NCBI GenBank assembly: GCA_020025875.1
Contig: JAHHRI010000004.1
Location: 125 to 64,124, forward strand
DNA length: 64,000 bases
Source of the DNA: Alphaproteobacteria bacterium
GTDB lineage: Bacteria; Pseudomonadota; Alphaproteobacteria; RF32; CAG-239
Direction of reading: 5' to 3'
Below the pieces are notes generated by a model that saw only the letters and a program-made list of their open reading frames with translations, was not told the origin of the DNA and did not search any database. Positions within the stretch are counted from its first letter, which is position 1, and every line of letters begins with the position of its first letter. Positions 6,264-39,633 of this stretch are shown here, one piece after another. The translations under genes were made by a program, and so were the position numbers.

Positions 6264-7574
6264 CTACTCCACGGTTGTGGCAATGACCGGTTTGAGCTGT
6301 GGTTTTTCGTTATCCGTCACAATATTTTGCTGCAGTTCGTTTTCGGCAAAACGATAATCCTCCTCGCTTTCGGCATGGATGAAGGCCAGCGGATTGTGCT
6401 CGTCGACATAGTCGCCGATTTGGCAAAATTCGGTATAGCCAGACGCATAGTCCAACTTTTGATCGGGGGCGGTGCGTCCGCCTTTCAGCCCAATGATGCT
6501 GAGCCCGATGTTGCGGGTGTTCATGCTTTTTACATAACCGGCGTTAAGCGGAAAAACCGGTTTGACGATGGTTGCTCGGGGGAGGTATTTTTCCGGCTGT
6601 TCGGTAAAGTCTGCCGGACCTCCGAGTTTTTTGACCATGCGCGCGAAAACTTCCAGCGATCTGCCGGAAGCAAGATCGGCGTTTAGGCGTTTTTGCGCAT
6701 CTTCGCGTGTTGAAAAACAGCCGGCGTTGACCAGCAGTTCGGCCGCAAGATCAAGCGTGATTTGGTGGAGGCGGGGATCAACGTTGATTCCTTTTAAATA
6801 ATCAACCGCTTCTTTAACCTCCAGCGCGTTGCCGACGGTTGTGCCCAACACTTGGTTCATGTCGGTAAGGAGAGCTTTGGTTTTGGTGCCGGACAAATTG
6901 GCGACGCGGACGATGGAGCGTGCCAGCGCGCAACCGTCTTCAAGGTTGCTCATAAAGGCGCCGTTGCCAAATTTTAAGTCCATGATCAGGCAGTTGAGAC
7001 CGGCAGCCAGTTTTTTTGAAAGAATGGAGGCGGTAATCAGCGGAATCGATTCAACGGTTGCCGAAACATCACGAATGGCATAAATTTTTTTATCTGCCGG
7101 CGCCAAGCTGCCGGTTTGCCCGATGACGGCGCAGCCGACTTCTTTGACCGTGTTGCGGAAAAGCTCATTGTCGGGGTGCGTTTGATAACCGGGGATCGAA
7201 TCGAATTTGTCGAGGGTGCCGCCGGTATGCCCCAGACCGCGACCGGAAATCATCGGCACAAAGACACCGGCAGCGGCAAGCATGGGTGCCAGCATCAGGC
7301 TGACTTTGTCGCCAACCCCGCCGGAAGAATGTTTGTCGACGACTGGCGCGTCCAGTTCCGGCCATTGCAAAACGTCGCCGGAATCGCGCATGGCAAGTGT
7401 CAGATCCTTGGTTTCTTCGTCATTCAGCCCGTTTAAGAAAGCCGCCATGGTAAAAGAACTGATCTGGCAGTCGGCAATGGTGCCGTCGGTAACACCGCGA
7501 ATGAAAAAATTGATTTCTTCGGCACTTAGGTTTAAATTGTTGCGTTTTTTGCGGATAATTTCTTGTGGCAGCAT
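6264..7574 (-). CDS. deoA: thymidine (pyrimidine-nucleoside) phosphorylase
   Basis: Contains ..VDKHSSGGVGDKVSLMLAPM.. and the N-terminal MLPQEIIRKKR... Start is set at ATG 7574 (GGAGA RBS, 4 nt after the deoC stop). The ORF-track start at 7589 is also possible. Confidence 0.92.
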   Translation of the reverse strand: MLPQEIIRKKRNNLNLSAEEINFFIRGVTDGTIADCQISSFTMAAFLNGLNDEETKDLTLAMRDSGDVLQWPELDAPVVDKHSSGGVGDKVSLMLAPMLAAAGVFVPMISGRGLGHTGGTLDKFDSIPGYQTHPDNELFRNTVKEVGCAVIGQTGSLAPADKKIYAIRDVSATVESIPLITASILSKKLAAGLNCLIMDLKFGNGAFMSNLEDGCALARSIVRVANLSGTKTKALLTDMNQVLGTTVGNALEVKEAVDYLKGINVDPRLHQITLDLAAELLVNAGCFSTREDAQKRLNADLASGRSLEVFARMVKKLGGPADFTEQPEKYLPRATIVKPVFPLNAGYVKSMNTRNIGLSIIGLKGGRTAPDQKLDYASGYTEFCQIGDYVDEHNPLAFIHAESEEDYRFAENELQQNIVTDNEKPQLKPVIATTVE

Positions 7575-7578
7575 ATTG

Positions 7579-8313
7579 TTAATCTCCATTTTCGATGACT
7601 CTGATCAAATCGTCTAAAAGCGAACTGGCGCCGATGCGGAAATGCTGAGGATTGGGCCAATCGGCTCCCAAGATCACTTCGGATAAAATCAGATATTTGC
7701 GTGCTTCTTCAAAAGTTTTGATACCGCCGCTGGCTTTGAAACCGACATCGCGACCGCTGTCACGGATGGTTTCCAAAATGATGTTTGCCGCGCCGATGGT
7801 TGCGGAAACAGGCGTTTTGCCGGTTGAGGTTTTGATGAAGTTTATGTCATATTCCAGACATAGTTTGACGGCGGCGCTGATTGTTGATATATGTTTGAGT
7901 TCACCTGTTTCGAGAATGATTTTAGCGGTATGTTTGGCACATTCGCGTTGGGTGATGTCGAGAAAGCGGCGACAGACGTCTAAGTTGCCGGCAAGAAAGT
8001 CGCGGTAGGGAAAAACGGCGTCAATTTCATCAGCGCCGCTGCTCAGGCTTTTTTTAATTTCTTCTTTGAGCAGTTTAAAGTCGTTGCCGCCGGCGGGAAA
8101 ATTGACCACCGTGGCAACTTTTATCGGTGTTTTTTTGAGCAGTTTGCGAGCAAGCGACACCCATTCCGGATACACGCAGACAGCGGCGGCAGTACCGTAC
8201 GGGGTTGAGGCCTTTGCGCACAAGCTGCTGATTTTTTCTTCCGTATCGTCATGGTTGAGCGAGGTCAGATCCAGGCTGCCGATCAGCCGAAAAGCGTTTT
8301 GAGTGTCACTCAT
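7579..8313 (-). CDS. deoC: deoxyribose-phosphate aldolase
   Basis: DeoC-like TIM barrel with ..IKTSTGK.. (Schiff-base Lys region) and ..FKASGGI... Start is set at ATG 8313 (AAGGAA RBS, 2 nt after the punA stop). The 38-codon upstream extension overlaps punA. Confidence 0.9.
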   Translation of the reverse strand: MSDTQNAFRLIGSLDLTSLNHDDTEEKISSLCAKASTPYGTAAAVCVYPEWVSLARKLLKKTPIKVATVVNFPAGGNDFKLLKEEIKKSLSSGADEIDAVFPYRDFLAGNLDVCRRFLDITQRECAKHTAKIILETGELKHISTISAAVKLCLEYDINFIKTSTGKTPVSATIGAANIILETIRDSGRDVGFKASGGIKTFEEARKYLILSEVILGADWPNPQHFRIGASSLLDDLIRVIENGD

Positions 8314-9115
8314 GGCAAAATTCCTTAACATAATTGGTGATGAATGTAGTGAGATTGTCGGCGGCTTGGGCGGCGCCGAGCATGGTATCTTCGTGGGAAA
8401 GCGGCGTTTTTTGCAAGCCGGTGCCAAAGTTGGTGATGGCGGAAACGGCCAGCACTTTTATGCCGGCATGGACGGCGGCAATCACTTCGGGAACCGTGGA
8501 CATACCGACGGCATCGGCGCCGAGAATGCGAAAGGCGCGGATTTCGGCCGCGGTTTCAAAATTTGGTCCGAGTACCATCAGGTAAACACCTTCCGGCAGG
8601 TTTAGCCCGAGTTTGGCAGCCAGTTCTTTTGCCTGCCGCCGCATATTGCGGTCGTATGCGTTGCTCATGTCCGGAAAACGGGGTCCGATGTTGTCGTCAT
8701 TGGCGCCGACAAGCGGATTTTGACCGGAAAAGTTGATATGATCGTTGATCAGCATCAAACTGCCAGGGGTAAAATCGGGATTAAGCGAACCGGCGGCATT
8801 GGTAATAATCAGCCTTTTGATGCCGACGGCTTTAAGGGTGTTGATCACTTCCGTCATTGTCTGCGGGGTATGCCCCTCATAGAGATGAAAGCGTCCCTGC
8901 AGGCAAAGCACTTCGCTGTTTCCTATTTTGCCGACGATCATTTGGCCGCAATGTCCGGCAACGGTGGTGCGGGGAAAGCCCTCGATTGCTTGGTACGAAA
9001 TGGTCAGCGGGGATTTGACGGCTTCGGCAACGGCACCGAGACCGGAGCCGAGAATGATTGCCGTTTGTGGTTTTCTGCCTGCCAGAAGTTGTTTGAATTG
9101 TTCACGATTGATCAT
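8306..9115 (-). CDS. punA: purine nucleoside phosphorylase (trimeric PNP/MTAP family)
   Basis: Contains ..ILGSGLG..FP..TVAGH.G..V.G...V.CLQGRFH.YEG... Start is set at ATG 9115 (TTAAGGAATTTTAAC upstream, 1 nt after the cdd stop). Confidence 0.88.
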   Translation of the reverse strand: MINREQFKQLLAGRKPQTAIILGSGLGAVAEAVKSPLTISYQAIEGFPRTTVAGHCGQMIVGKIGNSEVLCLQGRFHLYEGHTPQTMTEVINTLKAVGIKRLIITNAAGSLNPDFTPGSLMLINDHINFSGQNPLVGANDDNIGPRFPDMSNAYDRNMRRQAKELAAKLGLNLPEGVYLMVLGPNFETAAEIRAFRILGADAVGMSTVPEVIAAVHAGIKVLAVSAITNFGTGLQKTPLSHEDTMLGAAQAADNLTTFITNYVKEFCHE

Positions 9116-9116
9116 G

Positions 9117-9506
9117 TTAAAATTCCTTAAAAGCATTGGGCAGGAGTTCGTTAACGGACATTGTTTTTTTGACGCCTTCGCGATCGGCCAGCAAAATTTC
9201 CGTTTCCGGCAGGGAAAATTCTAAAATTCGTTGCAGGCAGGCACCGCAGGGGGTGATCAACGTTGCGCCGTCGGAGATAACGAGAATTCGGCGAATTTTT
9301 GTGCCGCCGCCGCAAACCATGGCGGCAATGGCTCCCGCTTCGGCACAGGTGCCGCAAGGGTAGGAAATATTTTCGACATTGCAGCCGGCAAAAATTTGCC
9401 CGTTGTCGCTTTCAACCGCGGCACCGACCTTAAAATGAGAATAGGGGGCGTATGCTTTGTTTTGCGCTTCGCTTGCAAAATTGAAAAGTTGATGATAATT
9501 TTTCAT
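9117..9506 (-). CDS. cdd: cytidine deaminase (zinc-dependent, homotetrameric type)
   Basis: 129 aa with zinc motifs ..CAEAGAI.. and ..PCGACLQ... It is the first gene of the nucleoside-catabolism operon. Confidence 0.92.
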   Translation of the reverse strand: MKNYHQLFNFASEAQNKAYAPYSHFKVGAAVESDNGQIFAGCNVENISYPCGTCAEAGAIAAMVCGGGTKIRRILVISDGATLITPCGACLQRILEFSLPETEILLADREGVKKTMSVNELLPNAFKEF

Positions 9507-33214: not shown

Positions 33215-34225
33215 GTGATTCAAAAGAATTGGCAAGAACTTATTAAACCGACTAATCTTGAAATTGTTCCCAGCGATGGCGGCAACAAGGCTAAGATTGT
33301 GGTTGAACCTTTGGAGAGAGGATTTGGTCTTACTCTCGGCAACGCGTTAAGACGCATTTTACTCTCTTCTTTGCAGGGTGGCGCCGTAACGGCAATTAAA
33401 ATCGACGGTGTCTTACATGAATTTTCGGTTATCCCCGGTGTAAGAGAAGATGTTACGGATATTGTCTTAAACATCAAAGGGTTGGCCGTTGCCGTTCACA
33501 ACGAGGGTATGAAAACCATGTATCTGAAGGCCGAAGGGCCGTGCGAAGTGACGGCAGCAATGATTGAGACAGGACATGACGTTGAAATCAAAAATCCTGA
33601 TCTTTTTATTTGCACGCTTGATGCCGGCGCCAAACTCAACATGGAACTGACTGTCAATACAGGCAAAGGCTATGTTCCGGCAAGCCAAAACAAGCCGGTG
33701 GATGCACCGATCGGGTTGATTGCCGTTGATGCTATCTATTCGCCGGTTAAGCGCGTTTCGTACCGTGTTGATCGTACTCGTGTCGGTCAAGTTACCGATT
33801 ATGATAAATTGACATTGGTGGTTGAAACAAACGGCGTTGTTACACCGGAAGATGCGGTTGCTTTCTCGGCTCGCATTCTGCAAGATCAGTTGAAACCGTT
33901 TATTAATTTCGATGAACCGGAAAATGAAGCAGAAGTTGAAAAAGAAGAACTGCCGTTTAACAAGAATTTGTTGAAAAAGGTTGAAGAACTTGAACTTTCC
34001 GTTCGCTCCGCCAACTGCTTGAAGAACGATAACATCGTTTATATCGGTGATTTGGTGCAGAAGACAGAAGCTGAAATGCTGAGAACGCCGAACTTCGGGC
34101 GCAAGTCTTTGAACGAGATCAAAGAAGTTTTAGCCAAAATGGGTATTCATCTGGGTATGGAAACTCCAGGATGGCCGCCGGAAAATATTGAAGAATTGAT
34201 CAAACGGGTTGATGATCACTTTTAA
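33215..34225 (+). CDS. rpoA: DNA-directed RNA polymerase subunit alpha
   Basis: 336 aa with GTG start, beginning [12 protein letters not shown]... Contains ..[11 protein letters not shown].. and the C-terminal domain ..[19 protein letters not shown]... Confidence 0.96.
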
Positions 34226-34243
34226 TCTTGGATATGATTAAGC

Positions 34244-34279
34244 AAAAAACTCTCCTACCACGGTAGGGGAGTTTTTTTG
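34244..34279 (+). terminator. intrinsic terminator directly after rpoA
   Basis: A6-CTCTCCTACC-acg-GTAGGGGAG-T7, starting 19 nt after the rpoA stop. Confidence 0.8.
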
Positions 34280-34438
34280 TAACCGAAGAGGAATGCAAAA
34301 ACATTTGCAAAGAATGGACGGAAGCCGCCGAGGTTAGATGATAACGGGGCGTGGCGTCAGATGTATGATGATTAATTGAGGCTAAAAAAAGAATCGGCGA
34401 GCGTGATTTAAGGGGTAGGAAATAAAGGGATATTAAAT

Positions 34439-34776
34439 GCTTGCTGTGGAGGTGGTGCGGCAGGCGGTTGTGGTGCTTGTTGTCGGTAGGTGGTGCGTTA
34501 GGCGGTAGGGCGCTTGCTGTCGGTAGGTGGTGAGTTAGGCGGAAGGGCGGTTGCTGTCGGTAAGTGATGGGGCAGGCGGTAGGGTGCTTGCTGTCAGAGG
34601 TGGTGCGGCAGGCGGAAGGGCGGTTGTTGTCGGTAGGTGATGCGCTAGGCGGAAGGGCGGTTGTTGTCGGTAGGTGGTGCGCTAGGCGGAAGGGCGGTTG
34701 CTGTCGGTAAGTGATGGGGCAGGCGGAAGGGTGCTTGTTGTCGGTAGGTGGTGCGTTAGGCGGTAGGACGGTTGCT
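34439..34776. repeat. tandem array of 9 copies of a degenerate 36-37-bp unit (plus a partial unit)
   Basis: Unit is roughly GTCGGTAGGTGGTGCGYTAGGCGGWAGGGCGGTTGYT. Unit boundaries fall at 34446, 34482, 34519, 34556, 34593, 34629, 34666, 34703 and 34740. Each unit holds two copies of a 9-mer core GKCGGWAGG. The plus strand is strongly G-rich and C-poor. Confidence 0.9.
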
Positions 34777-35416
34777 TGAAACAAACAGATAAAGTTGCGA
34801 TGAGGCGTTGGGCGAATCGAGCTTGCTTGATTGCGTATCCTGCTTTTGGTATCTCCCGATGATGCTTGTCGGTGGCGAAAACGGGCGTTTCCCAACACAT
34901 CAAGTAAGTATCTTTTTGGCGGCGGTATCGGAGCGTGTCTTTTTCGAGATGGCGGTCATATCGAAAGGTTTTGGATATTGTTCGTCATGCTTCAAAGAGG
35001 CCGTCAAAATCTAATAAATTGTTTTTTGATTTAAAAATTCTCTTTTGACGAATTTTTGTATTAATTATGTGTCAGTACGGCGGCAATCATGGCATTTATC
35101 CTTGTTTTTTAGCAGAAATGTAGTAGATTGTAAAAAAGTCCGATCACAAACTTTGTGTCATTTTTCGGCAAAATGCGAAAAAGCGGTTTGGCGGTGAGTT
35201 GAAAACAGTATGTGTTTCGGAAAAGCTGATAAAACAAGGCTGGATTTTGATAATCTTTTCTATAAAACGCGCCAAGACGATATGGCTTTTTTGTATTCTT
35301 ATATCGTTGAAAAAGCGTGTTTTTGGCACTGCGCGGATGGTGATGTCAGTGGGGTGGCAAATGTTATGTGAACTGATTTTTTTACAGCCGCAACGAAAGA
35401 AAGGAAAAGGGTGTCA

Positions 35417-36454
35417 ATGGTTGAAGATTGGCAAAAACTGAATGCTTGCCGCTTGGGCTTGGTGTCTTCTTTTTTGTGGCACTACAAAGCTGTCGGCTAT
35501 CATGAAGCCCCACCGTTGCCGGTTACTTCCAAACAAGACGAAAGCGTGATTTTTGTCGGTGCGGCGATTTCGGCATTAAAAAAGGATTACATTTATCCGC
35601 AGGCCATTCCGAGCGGCGGGTTGGTCATAGCTCAGGACGCCATCCGCACGCGTAACATCAAAAATATGCTTGCCGATGACTTTCAGCCCAAATGGGGATC
35701 CTATTTTACCAATATCGACACGGTGTTTCCCTACGAACACAAGAACGAAGCCTTTGCTCAGGCCTTAGCTTTTTTTACGGACAAAGTAAAACTCGCGCCT
35801 GAGGATTTGTTGTTGCGTGTTCGTTCAAAAGACGAAGAATTGTATCAATTAGTGCAAGCAAGCCGTTGGCCGACGGTGGAGGTTGATGCTCATCCGGAAA
35901 AATACTACCGTCATACGGTTGGTATTGACGATGTTTACGGAGAAAATTTTAATTTTGCCGTGCGCCATAAACACACCGGCGAATATTGCGATGTCGGCAA
36001 CTTTATCGTGTTCCGCGATTGCGGAAGCCGACAGCCGCTGTTTATGGAAGTCGGTTTCGGAGATACGGTGATTATGCAGGCCAAATATGGGTTGCCTCAT
36101 GTTACGGATTGTTATCCGTTTCCCAAACATCCGGCGCTGGATCAAAACCATAAGTTCAAAGACTGCATTATAACCTCGCAAGCGATGATGCGCGAGGGGC
36201 TTATGCCGTCCAGCCGCGATGAACAGTGTAAAATTCTTTACAAATATCTACGCAGTATTTATTATTTTGCAGATCAGGCAAGATTGAAGCCGCAGGAGCT
36301 TTCAAAACTGTTGCATCATTCCGAGGCGATGATTTTCGGCAATGTGCGGGCAGCACCGGTCATGACGGAGCTGTTTGCCGCAAAAAGCGGGAGAATGGAA
36401 GAACTGAACAGGGTAACTTTATGGAAATTACAACAACAAAGAGAGGGAAGATGA
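35417..36454 (+). CDS. stand-alone paralog of the class II alanyl-tRNA synthetase catalytic core (no tRNA-binding, editing or C-Ala domains)
   Basis: 345 aa (GTG 35411 also possible). The by-eye alignment to the AlaRS N-terminal domain is collinear throughout. FLWHYKAVGYHEAPPLPVTSKQDESVIFVGAAISALKK matches FLDFFHSKGH..V.SSSLVP.NDPTLLFTNAGMNQFK. IAQDAIRT matches SQRCVRA. WGSYFTNIDTVFPYEHKNEAFAQALAFFTDKVKLAPEDLLLRV matches HHTFFEMLGNFSFGDYFK.DAI.FAWELLT....LPKERLWVTV. VGNFIVF matches IWNIVFMQ. FMEVGFGDTVIMQAKYGLPHVTDCYPF matches SVDTGMGLERIAAVLQ.V.SNYDIDLF. CIITSQAMMREGLMPSSRDEQCKILYKYLRSI matches IADHIR...FLI.DGV.PSNE.RGYVLRRIIRRA. Confidence 0.7.
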   Translation: MVEDWQKLNACRLGLVSSFLWHYKAVGYHEAPPLPVTSKQDESVIFVGAAISALKKDYIYPQAIPSGGLVIAQDAIRTRNIKNMLADDFQPKWGSYFTNIDTVFPYEHKNEAFAQALAFFTDKVKLAPEDLLLRVRSKDEELYQLVQASRWPTVEVDAHPEKYYRHTVGIDDVYGENFNFAVRHKHTGEYCDVGNFIVFRDCGSRQPLFMEVGFGDTVIMQAKYGLPHVTDCYPFPKHPALDQNHKFKDCIITSQAMMREGLMPSSRDEQCKILYKYLRSIYYFADQARLKPQELSKLLHHSEAMIFGNVRAAPVMTELFAAKSGRMEELNRVTLWKLQQQREGR

Positions 36455-37416
36455 TAGCAAAAAAATTAAAGAAAGGCTCGCATGTGCGAGTTATTGCACC
36501 TGCACGCAGCTTGGGGATTGTGAGTGAAAATTGTCGGAAAATTGCCGATAAGCGGCTTGCAGAGATGGGCTTGCGGGTTTCGTTCGGGCGGCATGCGGAA
36601 GAAATGGACGGGGTTGCTTCTTCTTCCGTTGCGTCCCGATTGGAAGATTTGCATGAAGCTTTTGCCGATAAAACGGTTGACGGCATTCTGACGGTTATCG
36701 GCGGGTTTAATTCGATTGAACTTCTTTCCGGAATAGATTATCGGTTGATCGCCGATAACCCAAAGATTTTGTGCGGCTTTTCCGATATTACCGGACTGGC
36801 CAACGCCATTTATGCCAAAACGGGGTTGGTGACTTATTCGGGGCCGCATTACTCTACTTTCGGTATGCTGAAAGGAAACGAATATACGCTTGAATATTTT
36901 AAAAAATGCCTGTTTCAGAGCGAGTCCTTTGAGTTGCATCCGGCAGCCGAGTGGTCGGATGATCCATGGTATCTGGATCAGGAAAACCGCAAATTTATAA
37001 AAAATGACGGCTACTGGGAAATAGCTTCCGGTGCCGCGGAAGGTCGGTTGGTCGGCGGCAATTTGGGGCTTTTGGACGAGTTGAAAGGAACGCCTTATTT
37101 TCCGGACATCAAAGACAGTATTTTGTTTTTGGAACATTGTGCGGAAAATGAAGTTTGGACTTTTAACCGCAATCTGCAGGCACTCTGCCTGCATCCGGAT
37201 TTTGCTTCGGTTAGGGCGATTGTGTTCGGACGTTTTGAGCCGGAAAACCAAATTGATCGGTCGAAGTTGGAGCAGATATTGAGCACAAAGAAAGAATTGG
37301 TCGGAAAACCGATTATTGCCAATGTCGATTTTGGGCATACAACACCGATCATTACCTTTCCTATCGGCGGCAGCTGCCGAATCGATAACGGGCGGATTGA
37401 ACTGACGGCATTTTAG
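36451..37416 (+). CDS. peptidase S66 family serine hydrolase (LD-carboxypeptidase LdcA / microcin C7 immunity MccF-like)
   Basis: 321 aa. Its ATG overlaps the upstream stop as ATGA. Nucleophile elbow ..ILCGFSDITGL.., acidic ..ILFLEHC.., and His in ..NVDFGHTTP.. occur in the Ser-Glu-His order of S66 enzymes. N-terminal ..VRVIAPA... Confidence 0.8.
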   Translation: MIAKKLKKGSHVRVIAPARSLGIVSENCRKIADKRLAEMGLRVSFGRHAEEMDGVASSSVASRLEDLHEAFADKTVDGILTVIGGFNSIELLSGIDYRLIADNPKILCGFSDITGLANAIYAKTGLVTYSGPHYSTFGMLKGNEYTLEYFKKCLFQSESFELHPAAEWSDDPWYLDQENRKFIKNDGYWEIASGAAEGRLVGGNLGLLDELKGTPYFPDIKDSILFLEHCAENEVWTFNRNLQALCLHPDFASVRAIVFGRFEPENQIDRSKLEQILSTKKELVGKPIIANVDFGHTTPIITFPIGGSCRIDNGRIELTAF

Positions 37417-37423
37417 GGCGCAA

Positions 37424-37933
37424 ATGATTCTGACTGGTTCGGAAATTAAGAAATATGTTCTTAACGGCGATATCGTTATTGAGCCGTTTTGCGAAGATCA
37501 GCTCAATCCCAACAGCTACAACTATCGGTTGGGAAAAACCCTGACGTTTAAGGAAGATGACGGAAAGTACCACACGCTTAAAATTCCCGATGAAGGCTTG
37601 ATTCTTTATCCTAATCGGGTGTATTTGGGACATACGTTTGAAACGTTGGGCAGCAGCAAATGTGCCATGTCGCTGATTGGGCGCAGTTCGACCGGACGGC
37701 TGGGGCTGTTTTTGCAGGTTTCCGCCGATCTCGGTCATACCGGTTCCGTTCATAAATGGACTCTGGAACTGGTCACGGCTAAGCCTTTTCGGGTTTATCC
37801 GGAGATGATTATCGGGCAGATTTCATTCTGGCTCAATGATGGTGATGCCTCTTTGTACAAGGGAGGATACTCGGCCTATTCCTGCCCGCAAATATCGAAA
37901 ATGGAGAAAGAAATTGATACTGACGGGAAATAA
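37424..37933 (+). CDS. dCTP deaminase-fold protein, paralog 1 (catalytic Glu retained)
   Basis: 169 aa. Starts MILTGSEIKKYV..G.IVIEPF....LNPNSY..RLG, with GRSSTGRLGLF (compare Dcd GRSSLARLGL) and WTLELV, where Glu aligns with the Dcd catalytic Glu of ..IVLEF... The C-terminal tail diverges from Dcd. Confidence 0.8.
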   Translation: MILTGSEIKKYVLNGDIVIEPFCEDQLNPNSYNYRLGKTLTFKEDDGKYHTLKIPDEGLILYPNRVYLGHTFETLGSSKCAMSLIGRSSTGRLGLFLQVSADLGHTGSVHKWTLELVTAKPFRVYPEMIIGQISFWLNDGDASLYKGGYSAYSCPQISKMEKEIDTDGK

Positions 37934-38432
37934 AATTGCCGAAGAAGTTTTGAACGGAAAAATTGTGATTGAGCCGTTTGAGCTTTCCGGCATAACGACA
38001 AATTCTTATGATCTGACCTTGGGCAACAAGCTGTTGATGTATAATGACGAGGTGCTGGATCCTAAAAAAGAGCCGCAAACAACCATGTTTGAAATTCCCG
38101 ACTCCGGATATGAAATGAAACGCGGAGAATTTTTGCTCGGGTGCAGCAATGAATTTGTCGGCAGCGACTTTTATGTGCCGATTGTTCATGCCAAATCAAG
38201 CATTGCCAGACTGGGGCTGTTTATTCACATTACCTCCGGCTTGTTTGACATCGGTTGCAAATGCAATGTCACTTTTCATCTGTATGCAACAATGCCGATC
38301 AGGTTATACAAAAATATGCCGATTGCGCAAATAACATTTTGGAAAACCACGGGCGAAATAAAACACTACCACGGCAAATATCAGAATGATACAGGTCCCG
38401 TGGCTTCGCGCATTTGCAAAGATTTCAAATAA
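37914..38432 (+). CDS. dCTP deaminase-fold protein, paralog 2 (His replaces the catalytic Glu)
   Basis: 172 aa from in-frame TTG 37914, preceded by GGAGAAAG. This gives (M)ILTGNKIAEEVLNGKIVIEPF, parallel to paralog 1, and overlaps paralog 1 by 20 nt. It has AKSSIARLGLF and VTFHLY at the ..LE.. position, and a Dcd-like C-terminus KYQNDTGPVASRICKD. The track's start at 37836 adds an implausible extension. Confidence 0.72.
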   Translation: MILTGNKIAEEVLNGKIVIEPFELSGITTNSYDLTLGNKLLMYNDEVLDPKKEPQTTMFEIPDSGYEMKRGEFLLGCSNEFVGSDFYVPIVHAKSSIARLGLFIHITSGLFDIGCKCNVTFHLYATMPIRLYKNMPIAQITFWKTTGEIKHYHGKYQNDTGPVASRICKDFK

Positions 38433-38435
38433 AGA

Positions 38436-38873
38436 TTATTTTTCCAGTACGAAAGTGACCGGTCCGTCGTTGATCAGTTCCACCGCCATGTCGGCTTGAA
38501 AAATACCGTTTTCCACATTAAGCCCTTCGGCTTGCAGACATTCGGAAAAATATTCGTAGAGCGGTTTTGCCGTTTCCGGTCCGGCGGCATGGTCAAAACC
38601 GGGGCGGTTGCCGCGAGATGTGTCGCCTGCCAGCGTAAATTGGGAAACAACCAGCGCGCTGCCGCCCACATCTTTGAGCGAAAGATTCATTTTGCCGTTC
38701 CCGTCTTCAAAGATGCGCAATGCCGCCGTCTTTTTTGCAAGAGCCGCCGCTTGTTCTTTGCCGTCATTTTTGAAAACACCGATAAAGATGAGTAAACCGA
38801 CGCCGATTGCCGATACACTCCGATCGTTAACCGAAACCGAAGCTCTTTTGACACGCTGAATAAGAAGCTTCAT
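38436..38873 (-). CDS. dtd: D-aminoacyl-tRNA deacylase
   Basis: 145 aa from ATG 38873 (GGAGG RBS). Starts MKLLIQRV..A.V.V, with ..VSQFTL.. and ..NDGPVTF... Its stop lies only 3 nt from the stop of Dcd-like paralog 2 (convergent). Confidence 0.92.
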   Translation of the reverse strand: MKLLIQRVKRASVSVNDRSVSAIGVGLLIFIGVFKNDGKEQAAALAKKTAALRIFEDGNGKMNLSLKDVGGSALVVSQFTLAGDTSRGNRPGFDHAAGPETAKPLYEYFSECLQAEGLNVENGIFQADMAVELINDGPVTFVLEK

Positions 38874-38977
38874 TTTTATCCTCCAAAGTTTTTTTATGAT
38901 AAAGGGTAGCGTTGAGAAAGCCGGAATGCAAGCTTTATTTTGTGGTTTTTGGTGTTCAATATGCAAATAAAAAAGGC

Positions 38978-39006
38978 TTGCCAAAAAGAAAAATCTTCTG
39001 TATATT
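38978..39006 (+). promoter_or_regulatory. near-consensus sigma70 promoter dedicated to rplQ
   Basis: TTGCCA (38978-38983), 17-nt spacer, TATATT (39001-39006). Lies about 120 nt upstream of the rplQ ATG. Confidence 0.55.
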
Positions 39007-39126
39007 GCGCCTGAAATCGTGAGTTTGAAATTCGCGGAATGCCGGCATTTATGAAGGTAGTGACGGCTTTTTATGTTTTATCCGCTTTGCCTGTCAAAGC
39101 ATTTAGAGAAAAGAAAGGAAACAGCC

Positions 39127-39633
39127 ATGAGACATGGTGATAAACACAGAAAATTTAACATGCCGAGAAGCCAGAGAAGAGCTTTGTTCTCAAACCTGAC
39201 CAACGCGTTGTTGACGCATGAGCAGATCACAATCACTTTGCCGCGCGCCAAAGAACTGAGAACTTTTGCCGACAGCATGATCACGTTTGCCAAAAAAGGC
39301 GATCTGAACAGTCGTCGTATGGCGTTGGCCTTTTTGCGTGACAACGAAGTTGTTGCCAAATTGTTCTCTACTTTAGCCGAACGTTATAAAGAACGTAACG
39401 GTGGTTATACGCGTGTTCTTAAAGCCGGCATTCGCTATGGCGATGCTGCTCCGATGGCGATTATCGAACTGGTTGACCGTGATGTTAATGCCAAAGGTGC
39501 CAAAGATTTGGCACGAGTAGCCGCCGAGAAGGCCGCTGCCGAAGCTGCTGAAAAAGCGGTTGAGGAAGAAGCTAAAAAAGAAGAAGCCAAAGTAGAAAAA
39601 AAGGCTGAAAAAAAATCGAAAAAAGCCGAATAA
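39127..39633 (+). CDS. rplQ: 50S ribosomal protein L17 with Ala/Glu/Lys-rich C-terminal tail
   Basis: Starts [23 protein letters not shown]...L..HE.I.T at ATG 39127 (AAGGAA RBS). The tail is ..[37 protein letters not shown]. Confidence 0.95.

Follow-up and report, generated by a model that had tools for sequence, protein, structure and literature searches.

As far as found in the literature that we searched, enzymes of the Dcd/dUTPase fold are described as homo-oligomers. The bifunctional dCTP deaminase-dUTPases (DCD-DUT) of M. jannaschii (1ogh), M. tuberculosis (2qxx and 4a6a), and B. halodurans (4xjc) are homotrimers or homohexamers encoded by one gene, with both the catalytic Glu and the motif-III Asp in each subunit. 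The monofunctional dCTP deaminase Dcd of E. coli (1xs1; TIGR02274) carries Ser111, Arg115, and Glu138, the residues assigned to deamination. Non-identical domains are combined into Dcd-fold oligomers in the "long" two-domain DCD (PF06559; A. tumefaciens 2r9q) and in chains with three Dcd domains, both being covalent fusions. Here, we analyzed two overlapping genes of this fold in a stretch of 64,000 nucleotides (hereafter, the window) from an alphaproteobacterium of the GTDB lineage RF32; CAG-239 (assembly GCA_020025875.1, contig JAHHRI010000004.1, positions 125 to 64,124). The names DcdA, for the first open reading frame (ORF), and DcdB, for the second one, were coined in this analysis; public annotation labels both alike as "dCTP deaminase".

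The pair has in common with the DCD-DUT enzymes the fold, the order of motifs, and the peptide of the allosteric loop; the C-terminal lid of DcdB is the same, and DcdA and DcdB together hold the complete residue set of one DCD-DUT subunit. Unlike in these enzymes, Glu is found only in DcdA, while Asp and the lid are found only in DcdB, the pocket of DcdA gains two invariant His and a Trp, and the genes are paired and located in specialized clusters. In contrast to the "long" and triple-domain proteins, DcdA and DcdB are separate, translationally coupled polypeptides, each with its own motif II. We favor, with modest confidence, the reading that DcdA and DcdB are the two subunits of a single heteromeric Dcd/dUTPase-fold enzyme, ancient in origin, that makes or remodels the nucleotide of an aminoacyl-nucleotide compound.

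The DcdA gene occupies positions 37424-37933 of the forward strand, starts with ATG, and encodes 169 amino acids beginning with MILTGSEIKK. The DcdB gene (37914-38432, forward strand) starts with TTG and encodes 172 amino acids beginning with MILTGNKIAE. The frames overlap by 20 nt (37914-37933), and a GGAG sequence at 37903-37906 sits 7 nt 5' of the TTG at 37914, a layout of the junction (37903-37933, forward strand) suggestive of translational coupling. A longer version of the second ORF, from ATG 37836, exists mechanically; homologues start at the MILTG position instead, where the start codon is ATG in 67 of 85 loci. Close relatives of the window have either the identical 20-nt TTG layout or a 4-nt ATGA overlap. 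With this start, the 20-nt overlap claimed in the original prediction stands, and so does its claim that both proteins share the MILTG start and the Dcd architecture: they are 35% identical (5e-29) and match the Pfam family PF22769 (DCD) at 7.7e-29 (DcdA) and 4.4e-31 (DcdB). Against the TIGR02274 cut-off of 92.8 bits, DcdB scored 108.5 and DcdA 63.5; DcdA also gave a weak match to PF06559 (1.9e-4), and PHROG 1663 matched both proteins. NCBIfam contains no dedicated model for DcdA or DcdB, though one exists for the neighboring "mystery ligase" SrmL discussed below.

In the alignment to M. tuberculosis Dcd 2qxx (ITLEL) and E. coli Dcd (VLEF), His122 of DcdB (TFHLY) falls exactly on the column of the catalytic Glu, as had been predicted, and Glu115 of DcdA (TLELV) occupies the same column. 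Ser88, Arg92, and Glu115 of DcdA are equivalent to Ser111, Arg115, and Glu138 of E. coli Dcd, all three of which are therefore present in this subunit. The pocket of DcdA differs in that His105 replaces Asp128, His110 and Trp112 are added, and the motif-I Asp is changed to Asn33. DcdB retains the motif-I Asp33, Lys94-Ser95...Arg99, the His of the allosteric loop, and Asp112 at the position of Asp128. Its C-terminus is the Dcd lid GKYQNDTGPVASRICKDF (Tyr152, Lys155, Tyr156, Gln157, and Ser165), near-identical to that of E. coli Dcd (KYQN..GPVASRI.KD); DcdA has neither the Lys nor the Gln of the lid, in agreement with the earlier claim that only the second protein keeps a canonical one. Motif II reads GRSStGRLGL in DcdA and AKSSiARLGL in DcdB. 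The original prediction had listed AKSS as a deviation from GRSS, but M. tuberculosis Dcd has GKSS, and no loss is involved. Conversely, it had overlooked a second reciprocal change, namely that of the motif-III Asp128, which is His in DcdA and Asp in DcdB. The Asp kept in DcdB is catalytic in dUTPases (PMC4827122).

The complementary losses proposed for the two paralogs proved to be a family-wide reciprocal pattern when about 80 distinct sequences of each type were compared (E. coli Dcd numbering). Position 34 of motif I is Asn in 93% of DcdA and Asp in 99% of DcdB sequences. Motif II is conserved in both types, with Arg110 (95%), Ser111 (96%), Ser112 (99%), and Arg115 (98%) in DcdA and Lys110 (90%), Ser111 (100%), and Arg115 (100%) in DcdB. 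The allosteric loop has Gln121 (98%) in DcdA, and His121 and Thr123 (100% each) in DcdB. Position 128, occupied by Asp in Dcd, is His in 96% of DcdA and Asp in 97% of DcdB, and His133 (98%) and Trp135 (99%) are additions to the pocket of DcdA with no counterpart in DcdB. At position 138, DcdA has the Glu of Dcd in 100% of sequences, while DcdB has Gln in 85% and His in the clade of the window. The lid of DcdB is nearly invariant (Tyr171, 100%; Lys178, 99%; Tyr179, 100%; Gln180, 93%; Ser188, 100%), whereas DcdA has neither Lys178 nor Gln182. Among the 120 best homologues of DcdB, the catalytic column contained Gln in 84, His in 33, and Glu in none, and the His-type proteins form a clade sharing 67% identity or more with the window protein. 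Judging from this pattern, DcdA carries the three residues assigned to deamination but no ligands of the 3'-OH of deoxyribose, of Mg2+, or of the triphosphate lid, while DcdB carries the full set of nucleotide-binding ligands and would be unable to deaminate, its catalytic Glu being replaced. At position 131, both subunits have Ser or Cys (mostly Ser) instead of the Trp or Phe of Dcd (Trp131 in E. coli). This position may be the counterpart of the motif-III Tyr by which dUTPases exclude ribonucleotides, and ribonucleotide substrates are conceivable because the aromatic residue has been replaced in both subunits.

The AlphaFold2 monomer models were confident, with a predicted local distance difference test score (pLDDT) of 82 for DcdA and 93 for DcdB. 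The best Foldseek matches were bifunctional DCD-DUT structures, with template modeling (TM) scores of 0.82 and 0.92, respectively, and the top matches of both models were exclusively Dcd or DCD-DUT structures; dUTPase structures gave TM scores of about 0.5 or less. A search with the trimeric dUTPase family PF00692 returned no match for either protein, and together with Ser/Cys at the Tyr/Trp position this would place them outside that family. Dcd-type proteins lack the P-loop motif (PMC4827122). The pair also appears to fall outside the dCTP deaminases proper (EC 3.5.4.13), in which Glu138 is present in every subunit (DcdB has His122 in the window and Gln in 85% of the family) and the Glu-bearing chain also has Asp128 and the lid residues Tyr171, Lys178, and Gln182 (DcdA does not). 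E. coli Dcd differs from DcdB in its Glu138, from DcdA by the TIGR02274 cut-off, from both in the aromatic residue 131, and from the pair as a whole in being a single-gene housekeeping enzyme. Nor does a homo-oligomer from a single gene seem to fit, as predicted from the genes alone, since two diverged adjacent genes were found in 85 of 87 loci. Finally, a DCD-DUT would combine the half-reactions of deamination and pyrophosphate release in the site of a single polypeptide, while here the corresponding residues are split across A and B.

Scanning one genome of each species yielded 80 loci, which together with six others and the window itself made up a set of 87. A DcdA-type gene adjoined a DcdB-type gene on the same strand in 85 of them, and the two unpaired loci were both broken by a contig end; paralogs lacking Glu, in their Gln and His forms alike, therefore always occur in pairs, a point raised in the original prediction as worth surveying. 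The order was A-B in 72 and B-A in 13 pairs. The genes overlapped in 58 of the 85 pairs (by 4 nt in 39 loci and by 20 nt in 14) and were separated by no more than 35 nt in 25 more. The hosts include relatives of the window (88% identity), which are gut Alphaproteobacteria labeled "Azospirillum sp. 51_20". Among the others are many Patescibacteria of the candidate phyla radiation (CPR), Nano- and Woesearchaeota (DPANN), Rickettsiales, Cardinium, Parachlamydiales, and Bdellovibrionales. The pair was also found in Serratia, Erwinia, Ewingella, Pantoea, Photorhabdus, Pseudomonas, Burkholderia, Bordetella, Streptomyces, Micromonospora, and Enterococcus caccae; in Pantoea, Serratia, Erwinia, and Pseudomonas, it is located in islands. 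With the DcdA profile, 230 representatives (one per cluster of 50% identity) were retrieved at E <= 1e-30, a number that rose to 2068 at E <= 1e-10. A separate DcdA search gave 2788 clusters at 90% identity, some of which may be canonical Dcd.

Within a locus, DcdA and DcdB are 30%-50% identical everywhere, and each is about 28%-32% identical to the E. coli and M. tuberculosis Dcd. Because of this, the split is ancient, and the tandem duplication suggested at first, if taken as a recent one, is not borne out. The distance matrices of DcdA and DcdB were correlated (mirror-tree, Mantel r = 0.83), a value reached by none of 1000 permutations. The adjacency of the genes, this co-evolution, the reciprocal residues, and the existence of A/B fusions agree with the original proposal that the two proteins are functional partners, and it is likely that they are obligate ones.

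Candidate origins outside metabolism were rejected. The viral contigs scanned carry only single-copy Dcd genes that retain both Asp and Glu, which speaks against a phage origin. Anti-phage defense was dismissed since the models of PADLOC-DB 2.0 gave no match for DcdA or DcdB at E <= 0.1; known defensive dCTP deaminases have the zinc-dependent cytidine deaminase (CDA) fold and not that of Dcd.

Information on how the subunits could be assembled came from natural fusions. Two proteins, P0242 (532 amino acids) and P0247 (549 amino acids), contain three Dcd domains per chain. Domain 1 has the pocket (Asp128, Trp135, and Glu138) and the lid (Tyr171, Lys178, Tyr179, Gln182, and Ser188) and no motif II, domain 3 has Arg-Ser-Ser...Arg without Asp128 or Glu138, and domain 2 has neither set. 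These chains indicate natural complementation, in which motif II would be supplied in trans and the lid in cis with the pocket. In a third chain, P0287 (466 amino acids), hmmscan with separate A and B profiles gave the domain order B-like, B-like, A-like: domain 3 scored 113 bits with the A profile versus 55 with the B profile, and domains 1 and 2 scored higher with B than with A. Domain 3 alone has the A-type pocket (His128, His133, Trp135, Thr136, and Glu138), its motif II being gone, and domain 1 alone has the B-type Asp34, Lys110, Ser111, and Arg115, its own pocket being gone. The source of this chain is a single 2-kb metagenome contig (L104, 551-1951). A single complete active site is left in each of the three covalent pseudo-trimers. 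The last fusion suggests that A and B domains could occur in one trimer and that the indispensable site would consist of the A pocket and the B motifs I and II. The formation of mixed oligomers with such a composite site by the separate DcdA and DcdB proteins is probable. Completion of the A pocket by motifs I and II of B would explain why DcdA could lose the motif-I Asp while DcdB keeps it. The A pocket probably works without a canonical lid, because in the triple-Dcd chains the lid shares a domain with the Glu/Asp pocket. The same observation bears on the heterotrimer proposed in the original prediction: the partnership and the fusions with A and B domains are in its favor, but a Glu of one subunit closed under the lid of the other is doubtful, since in P0242 and P0247 the lid is cis to the pocket. 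The strongly conserved pocket and lid of B would then form a second site, with a role either in catalysis at the alpha-phosphate or in regulation.

Fusions of Gln-type Dcd domains to other modules were also noted in the actinobacterial proteins P0263, P0264, P0268, P0272, and P0273 (611-840 amino acids), as well as in P0281, P0286, and P0292. The partners, assigned by eye, are a phosphoenolpyruvate-utilizing, PPDK-like phosphotransferase, a class I methyltransferase, or HAD and kinase-like modules, which suggests further nucleotide-tailoring pathways that employ a non-deaminating Dcd variant.

The genomic context of the pair was analyzed in 73 dereplicated loci within 8 kb. At least one recurrent cluster gene was present near the pair in 65 of them. 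Ligases resembling aminoacyl-tRNA synthetases (aaRS) were found in 58 loci, including an AlaRS-like ligase in 37, a paralogue of class II LysRS in 22, and the "PheS-related mystery ligase SrmL" (NF051887, above the cut-off) in seven. Proteins with the methyltransferase fold occurred in 53 loci, MccD-like methyltransferases in 42, S66 peptidases in 33, pyridoxal phosphate-dependent decarboxylases of the ornithine/diaminopimelate type in 23, and ATP-grasp ligases in 15. MFS or MatE exporters, metallophosphoesterases, radical S-adenosylmethionine (SAM) enzymes, and Asp/Glu racemases were also recurrent. Before dereplication, the AlaRS-like family adjoined the pair in 47 loci and S66 homologues in 42. 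The pairing of DcdA and DcdB is without exception in the 85 loci, whereas all other genes of the clusters vary.

Several of these neighbors are related to proteins of the microcin C operon. The reference proteins came from the E. coli mcc operon itself, as verified in L087. MccD matched the neighboring methyltransferase in 44 loci (28%-31% identity over the full length, to 1e-34), MccF matched the S66 gene in 42 loci (to 1e-50), and the decarboxylase domain of MccE matched the decarboxylase in about 13 loci (23%-26% identity). Thus, homologues of MccD, a carboxy-aminopropyl transferase, of the MccE decarboxylase domain, and of MccF flank the pair, and the window has an MccF-like gene; comparison with E. 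coli MccD and MccE revealed no homologues of these two in the window, while they are present in related loci. Unlike the microcin C operon, the clusters have aaRS-like ligases and the Dcd pair in place of MccB, a ThiF-like nucleotidyltransferase, and MccC: BLASTP with E. coli MccB and MccC against all ORFs of the 87 loci gave no matches for either. An MccA peptide gene was likewise not seen, although MccA-like small ORFs were not searched for. In microcin C biosynthesis, the phosphate of peptidyl-nucleotides receives an aminopropyl group from MccD and MccE1, hydrolases such as MccF and HIT enzymes confer immunity, and self-resistance to Trojan-horse inhibitors of aaRS is usually achieved with an additional aaRS copy (PMC8323819). 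A full-length LeuRS gene adjoined the pair in five loci (L020, L023, L027, L032, and L069), from Roseateles, two CPR bacteria, a Woesearchaeote, and Pseudomonas batumici, a class I LysRS gene in five loci, and a SerRS gene in Pantoea. Together with the class II-like LysRS and SrmL, these extra genes resemble agnB2 and abmK of the agrocin 84/albomycin-type clusters, the LeuRS being similar to the resistant LeuRS of the agrocin 84 cluster; in contrast, nothing homologous to the biosynthesis genes of the agn or abm clusters was observed. A connection with the cytidine nucleoside agrocin 434 of Agrobacterium was considered and dropped, as none of the Agrobacterium or R. rhizogenes plasmids in the collection searched carried the pair. 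Taken together, the neighbors of the pair suggest that aminoacyl-nucleotide compounds are produced, or at the least handled, without MccB.

The composition of individual clusters varied. On a Streptomyces plasmid, an Erm-like methyltransferase, a phosphodiesterase, and TauD are followed by DcdA, DcdB, PIG-L, WbqC, and a family 4 glycosyltransferase (GT4), and then by an aaRS-related protein, a MurG-like protein, HIT, two radical SAM enzymes, and an LD-carboxypeptidase. The Dyella locus encodes a tandem-HIT/GalT-like protein and a MatE exporter, and that of R. etli a methyltransferase, a zinc-deaminase-like protein, NUDIX, and a metallophosphoesterase. In seven loci (L024, L025, L026, L028, L033, L043, and L046), mostly of CPR and other lineages known from metagenome-assembled genomes (MAGs), the gene of SrmL (NF051887, 6e-127; 372 amino acids) lies on the minus strand after the LysRS-like gene, at the end of a cluster of S66, decarboxylase, MccD-like, DcdA, DcdB, and LysRS-like genes. 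The Dcd pair may thereby give this "mystery ligase" a context.

Our best guess is that DcdA/DcdB is a heteromeric enzyme processing cytosine nucleotides for an aminoacyl-nucleotide product. The conserved catalytic site would be the A pocket completed in trans by motifs I and II of B, while the B pocket would bind a cytosine nucleotide without deaminating it, and either cleave or transfer at the alpha-phosphate in the manner of dUTPases or be regulatory. Most economically, B would bind a cytosine nucleoside triphosphate and break it or transfer at the alpha-phosphate, and the Glu of the A pocket could drive either deamination or substitution at C4 of a substrate no longer needing the triphosphate lid. 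The resulting pyrimidine nucleotide scaffold would be passed to the aaRS-like ligase, which would attach an amino acid, and in many clusters the MccD- and MccE-like enzymes would decorate the product, presumably of the microcin C/agrocin type, i.e., an inhibitor of a tRNA synthetase. Self-protection could be provided by the MccF-like hydrolases, by HIT hydrolases in some clusters, and by the extra aaRS copies. The window would represent a reduced four-gene version located between rpoA and rplQ that has lost the methyltransferase gene. It is speculation that an amine or amide replaces water at the alpha-phosphate, creating the N-P bond made by MccB in microcin C. That the composite site of A pocket and B phosphate side builds the warhead of an unrecognized family of MccB-free aminoacyl-nucleotide clusters, through an amine or amide at the alpha-phosphate and/or through substitution at C4 of cytosine, is a tentative and rather doubtful extension; this family would span CPR, DPANN, gut Alphaproteobacteria, plant-associated Gammaproteobacteria, and actinomycetes.

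A number of observations weigh against a role of the pair as a heteromeric enzyme of aminoacyl-nucleotide metabolism. The physical association of the subunits is based on gene order, co-evolution, and a few fusions, the sole A/B fusion coming from one 2-kb contig. Motif II is kept in both subunits, so that the interfaces of homotrimers would be complete too, and the substrate, product, and stoichiometry are all inferred. The match of the decarboxylases to MccE is weak (24% identity) and would be expected for any ornithine/diaminopimelate decarboxylase. The cluster of the window has no MccD- or MccE-like genes and has lost the methyltransferase, so it may be decaying or serve resistance only. 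Eight of the 73 loci have no cluster gene within 8 kb: L023, which is cut by the contig end, and those of Cardinium, two Rickettsiales, Bdellovibrionales, Parachlamydiales, one CPR bacterium, and one Streptomyces. In one of them, a Rickettsiales MAG (L054), thyA-folA is located 2 kb downstream of the pair, which would fit a housekeeping supply of dUMP. The neighbors in Parachlamydiales are an amidohydrolase, a small kinase, and an MTAP-like phosphorylase, and in the CPR and Streptomyces loci the next gene after the pair encodes a GT4 glycosyltransferase. In some lineages, the pair could still have a housekeeping or salvage function. As a separate observation, an ORF of the Cardinium locus (L019, 17402-17977), about 7 kb from the otherwise isolated pair, is 28% identical (2.5e-20) to the C-terminal acetyltransferase (immunity) domain of MccE, which may be a coincidence.

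Alternatively, the pair could be a split housekeeping bifunctional enzyme, derived from an ancestral DCD-DUT by subfunctionalization, in which DcdA deaminates dCTP and DcdB hydrolyzes dUTP to dUMP for thymidylate synthesis. The cluster-less loci of reduced genomes, the division of Glu from the motif-III Asp and lid, the DCD-DUT structures as the closest ones, and the score of DcdB above the TIGR02274 cut-off speak for this reading. However, genes for ligases, methyltransferases, decarboxylases, and S66 peptidases surround the pair in 65 of the 73 loci, on islands and plasmids, and the pair occurs in Enterobacterales (Pantoea, Serratia, and Erwinia) and Pseudomonas, where canonical dcd and dut are known to be present already. 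Moreover, DcdA is without the lid Lys, motif-I Asp, and sugar-binding Asp that a dCTP site needs, and the aromatic residue 131, to which a role in excluding ribonucleotides is ascribed by analogy with the motif-III Tyr of dUTPases, is gone from both subunits. We therefore consider this explanation unlikely, and, with the aaRS-like ligase and the MccF-, MccD-, and MccE-like neighbors pointing to specialized nucleotide metabolism, the view of the pair as a variant of the housekeeping dCTP deaminase is not supported.

It is equally unlikely that DcdB is a catalytically dead pseudoenzyme acting as a scaffold or nucleotide-sensing regulator of a DcdA deaminase. The replacement of Glu by Gln is a classic inactivating change, with E145Q and E138A variants present in the PDB, and the HVTA-type allosteric loop, which is used for dTTP feedback in Dcd enzymes (PMC4827122), is kept. 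Nevertheless, the ligands of triphosphate, Mg2+, and sugar, including the motif-III Asp, are 90%-100% conserved, which exceeds the needs of a scaffold, and the fusion of Gln-type Dcd domains to kinase-like, methyltransferase, and HAD domains suggests the handling of a substrate.

DcdA and DcdB could also form two separate homotrimers on consecutive steps of a pathway, co-transcribed for stoichiometry and never in complex. Each has both motif II and a pocket, so homotypic interfaces would be complete, and overlap and co-inheritance are equally expected for enzymes of consecutive steps. Three findings make this quite improbable: the fusions split pocket and motif II across domains, and one joins B-like and A-like domains in a single pseudo-trimer; the motif-I Asp lost in DcdA is kept in DcdB, which fits a phosphate side provided by B to the A pocket; and the pairing has no exception while other cluster genes vary.

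In the window, DcdA and DcdB end a tight unit of four genes. The first gene (35411-36454, forward strand) encodes a 347-amino-acid protein similar to the catalytic core of AlaRS (PF01411, 7.4e-07, just under the cut-off; TIGR00344, 2e-06) without the tRNA-binding, editing, and C-terminal domains, presumed to be an amino-acid-activating ligase. A search against PDB sequences found no match for it; relative to the E. coli AlaRS sequence, the Gln/Arg of motif 2 and E-G-G in place of D235-G237 are presumably conserved, which is only a lead. The second gene (36421-37416, forward strand; likely start ATG 36451) encodes an S66 serine peptidase with both the N- and C-terminal Pfam domains of the family. 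From this ATG, it overlaps the stop codon of the AlaRS-like gene by 4 nt, and its own stop codon lies 7 nt before the start of DcdA. Against PDB sequences, the peptidase matched the MccF-like proteins BA_5613/Lmo1638 (1e-106), MccF (5e-39), and the murein LD-carboxypeptidase LdcA (1e-22), and it is 29% identical to E. coli MccF (1.7e-32); by sequence similarity, it is MccF-like rather than LdcA-like. The unit is followed by dtd (38436-38984, minus strand), which encodes a D-Tyr-tRNA deacylase and is convergent to DcdB, the two stop codons being 3 nt apart. The genes rpoA (33215-34225) and rplQ (39073-39633) are normally neighbors in bacterial operons; here, the four-gene unit and dtd are inserted between them, and the relatives L007-L017 are arranged likewise. 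That this unit is a resistance or salvage island, in which imported toxins of the aminoacyl-nucleotide kind would be cleaved by the MccF-like peptidase and the nucleotide set free would be broken down by DcdAB, is very unlikely. Although the window has no MccD/MccE-like genes, exporter, or methyltransferase and stand-alone MccF homologues confer resistance (PMC8323819), it is not obvious what an amino-acid-activating ligase would contribute to detoxification, and the same core is found elsewhere in clearly biosynthetic clusters.

In the relatives L007 and L015, a class I SAM methyltransferase gene precedes the AlaRS-like gene. The full gene is missing from the window, where the synteny is broken (34277-35421, versus 3.2 kb in L007), and tblastn for the methyltransferase of the L007/L015 type found no match in the window. 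A possible remnant at 35210-35371 (forward strand) is a weak candidate, with a match of 20 residues, NLFYKTRQDDMAF (E = 3e-4 for a single comparison). The base composition of the insert was indistinguishable from that of its flanks, and the scan of 34200-39100 for promoters and terminators gave counts at background.

The fold and the superfamily are known, while the heteromeric organization, the His/His/Trp/Glu pocket, and the pair as a signature of gene clusters appear to be undescribed; full-text literature searches, with subscription-only papers outside their scope, returned nothing on paired Dcd proteins or on Dcd genes in mcc-like clusters. If the proposed organization is true, an obligate two-gene Dcd and the single-chain pseudo-trimers would be a clear case of subfunctionalization at an active site shared between subunits. 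The invariant His-His-Trp-Glu pocket probably brings new chemistry, and thousands of "dCTP deaminase" entries without the catalytic Glu or the sugar-binding Asp are probably misannotated. The pair could serve as a simple genomic marker for a large and phylogenetically very broad set of clusters whose hallmarks, namely aaRS-like ligases, tailoring and immunity genes of the microcin C type, and extra aaRS copies, are those of Trojan-horse inhibitors of tRNA synthetases. Such clusters are present in human-gut bacteria, CPR, and DPANN, the latter two not being known as antibiotic producers. The pseudo-trimers P0242, P0247, and P0287 may be of interest in themselves.

Regarding canonical enzymes, the window contained no other Dcd-like ORF and, according to a regex scan, no credible ORF with dUTPase motif 3. 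A salvage block on the minus strand (6264-9506) comprises genes for a pyrimidine nucleoside phosphorylase (6264-7589), a phosphorylase of the purine nucleoside/uridine (PNP/UDP) family (8306-9136), and the zinc cytidine deaminase cdd (9117-9506); cytidine can thus be converted to uridine by conventional means in this organism. Between rpoA and the cluster, a 37-bp tandem repeat (34439-34776; 9.2 copies with 82% match) is G-rich on the forward strand, with a GC skew of up to 0.47, and is spanned by a spurious minus-strand ORF of 232 amino acids (34200-34898).

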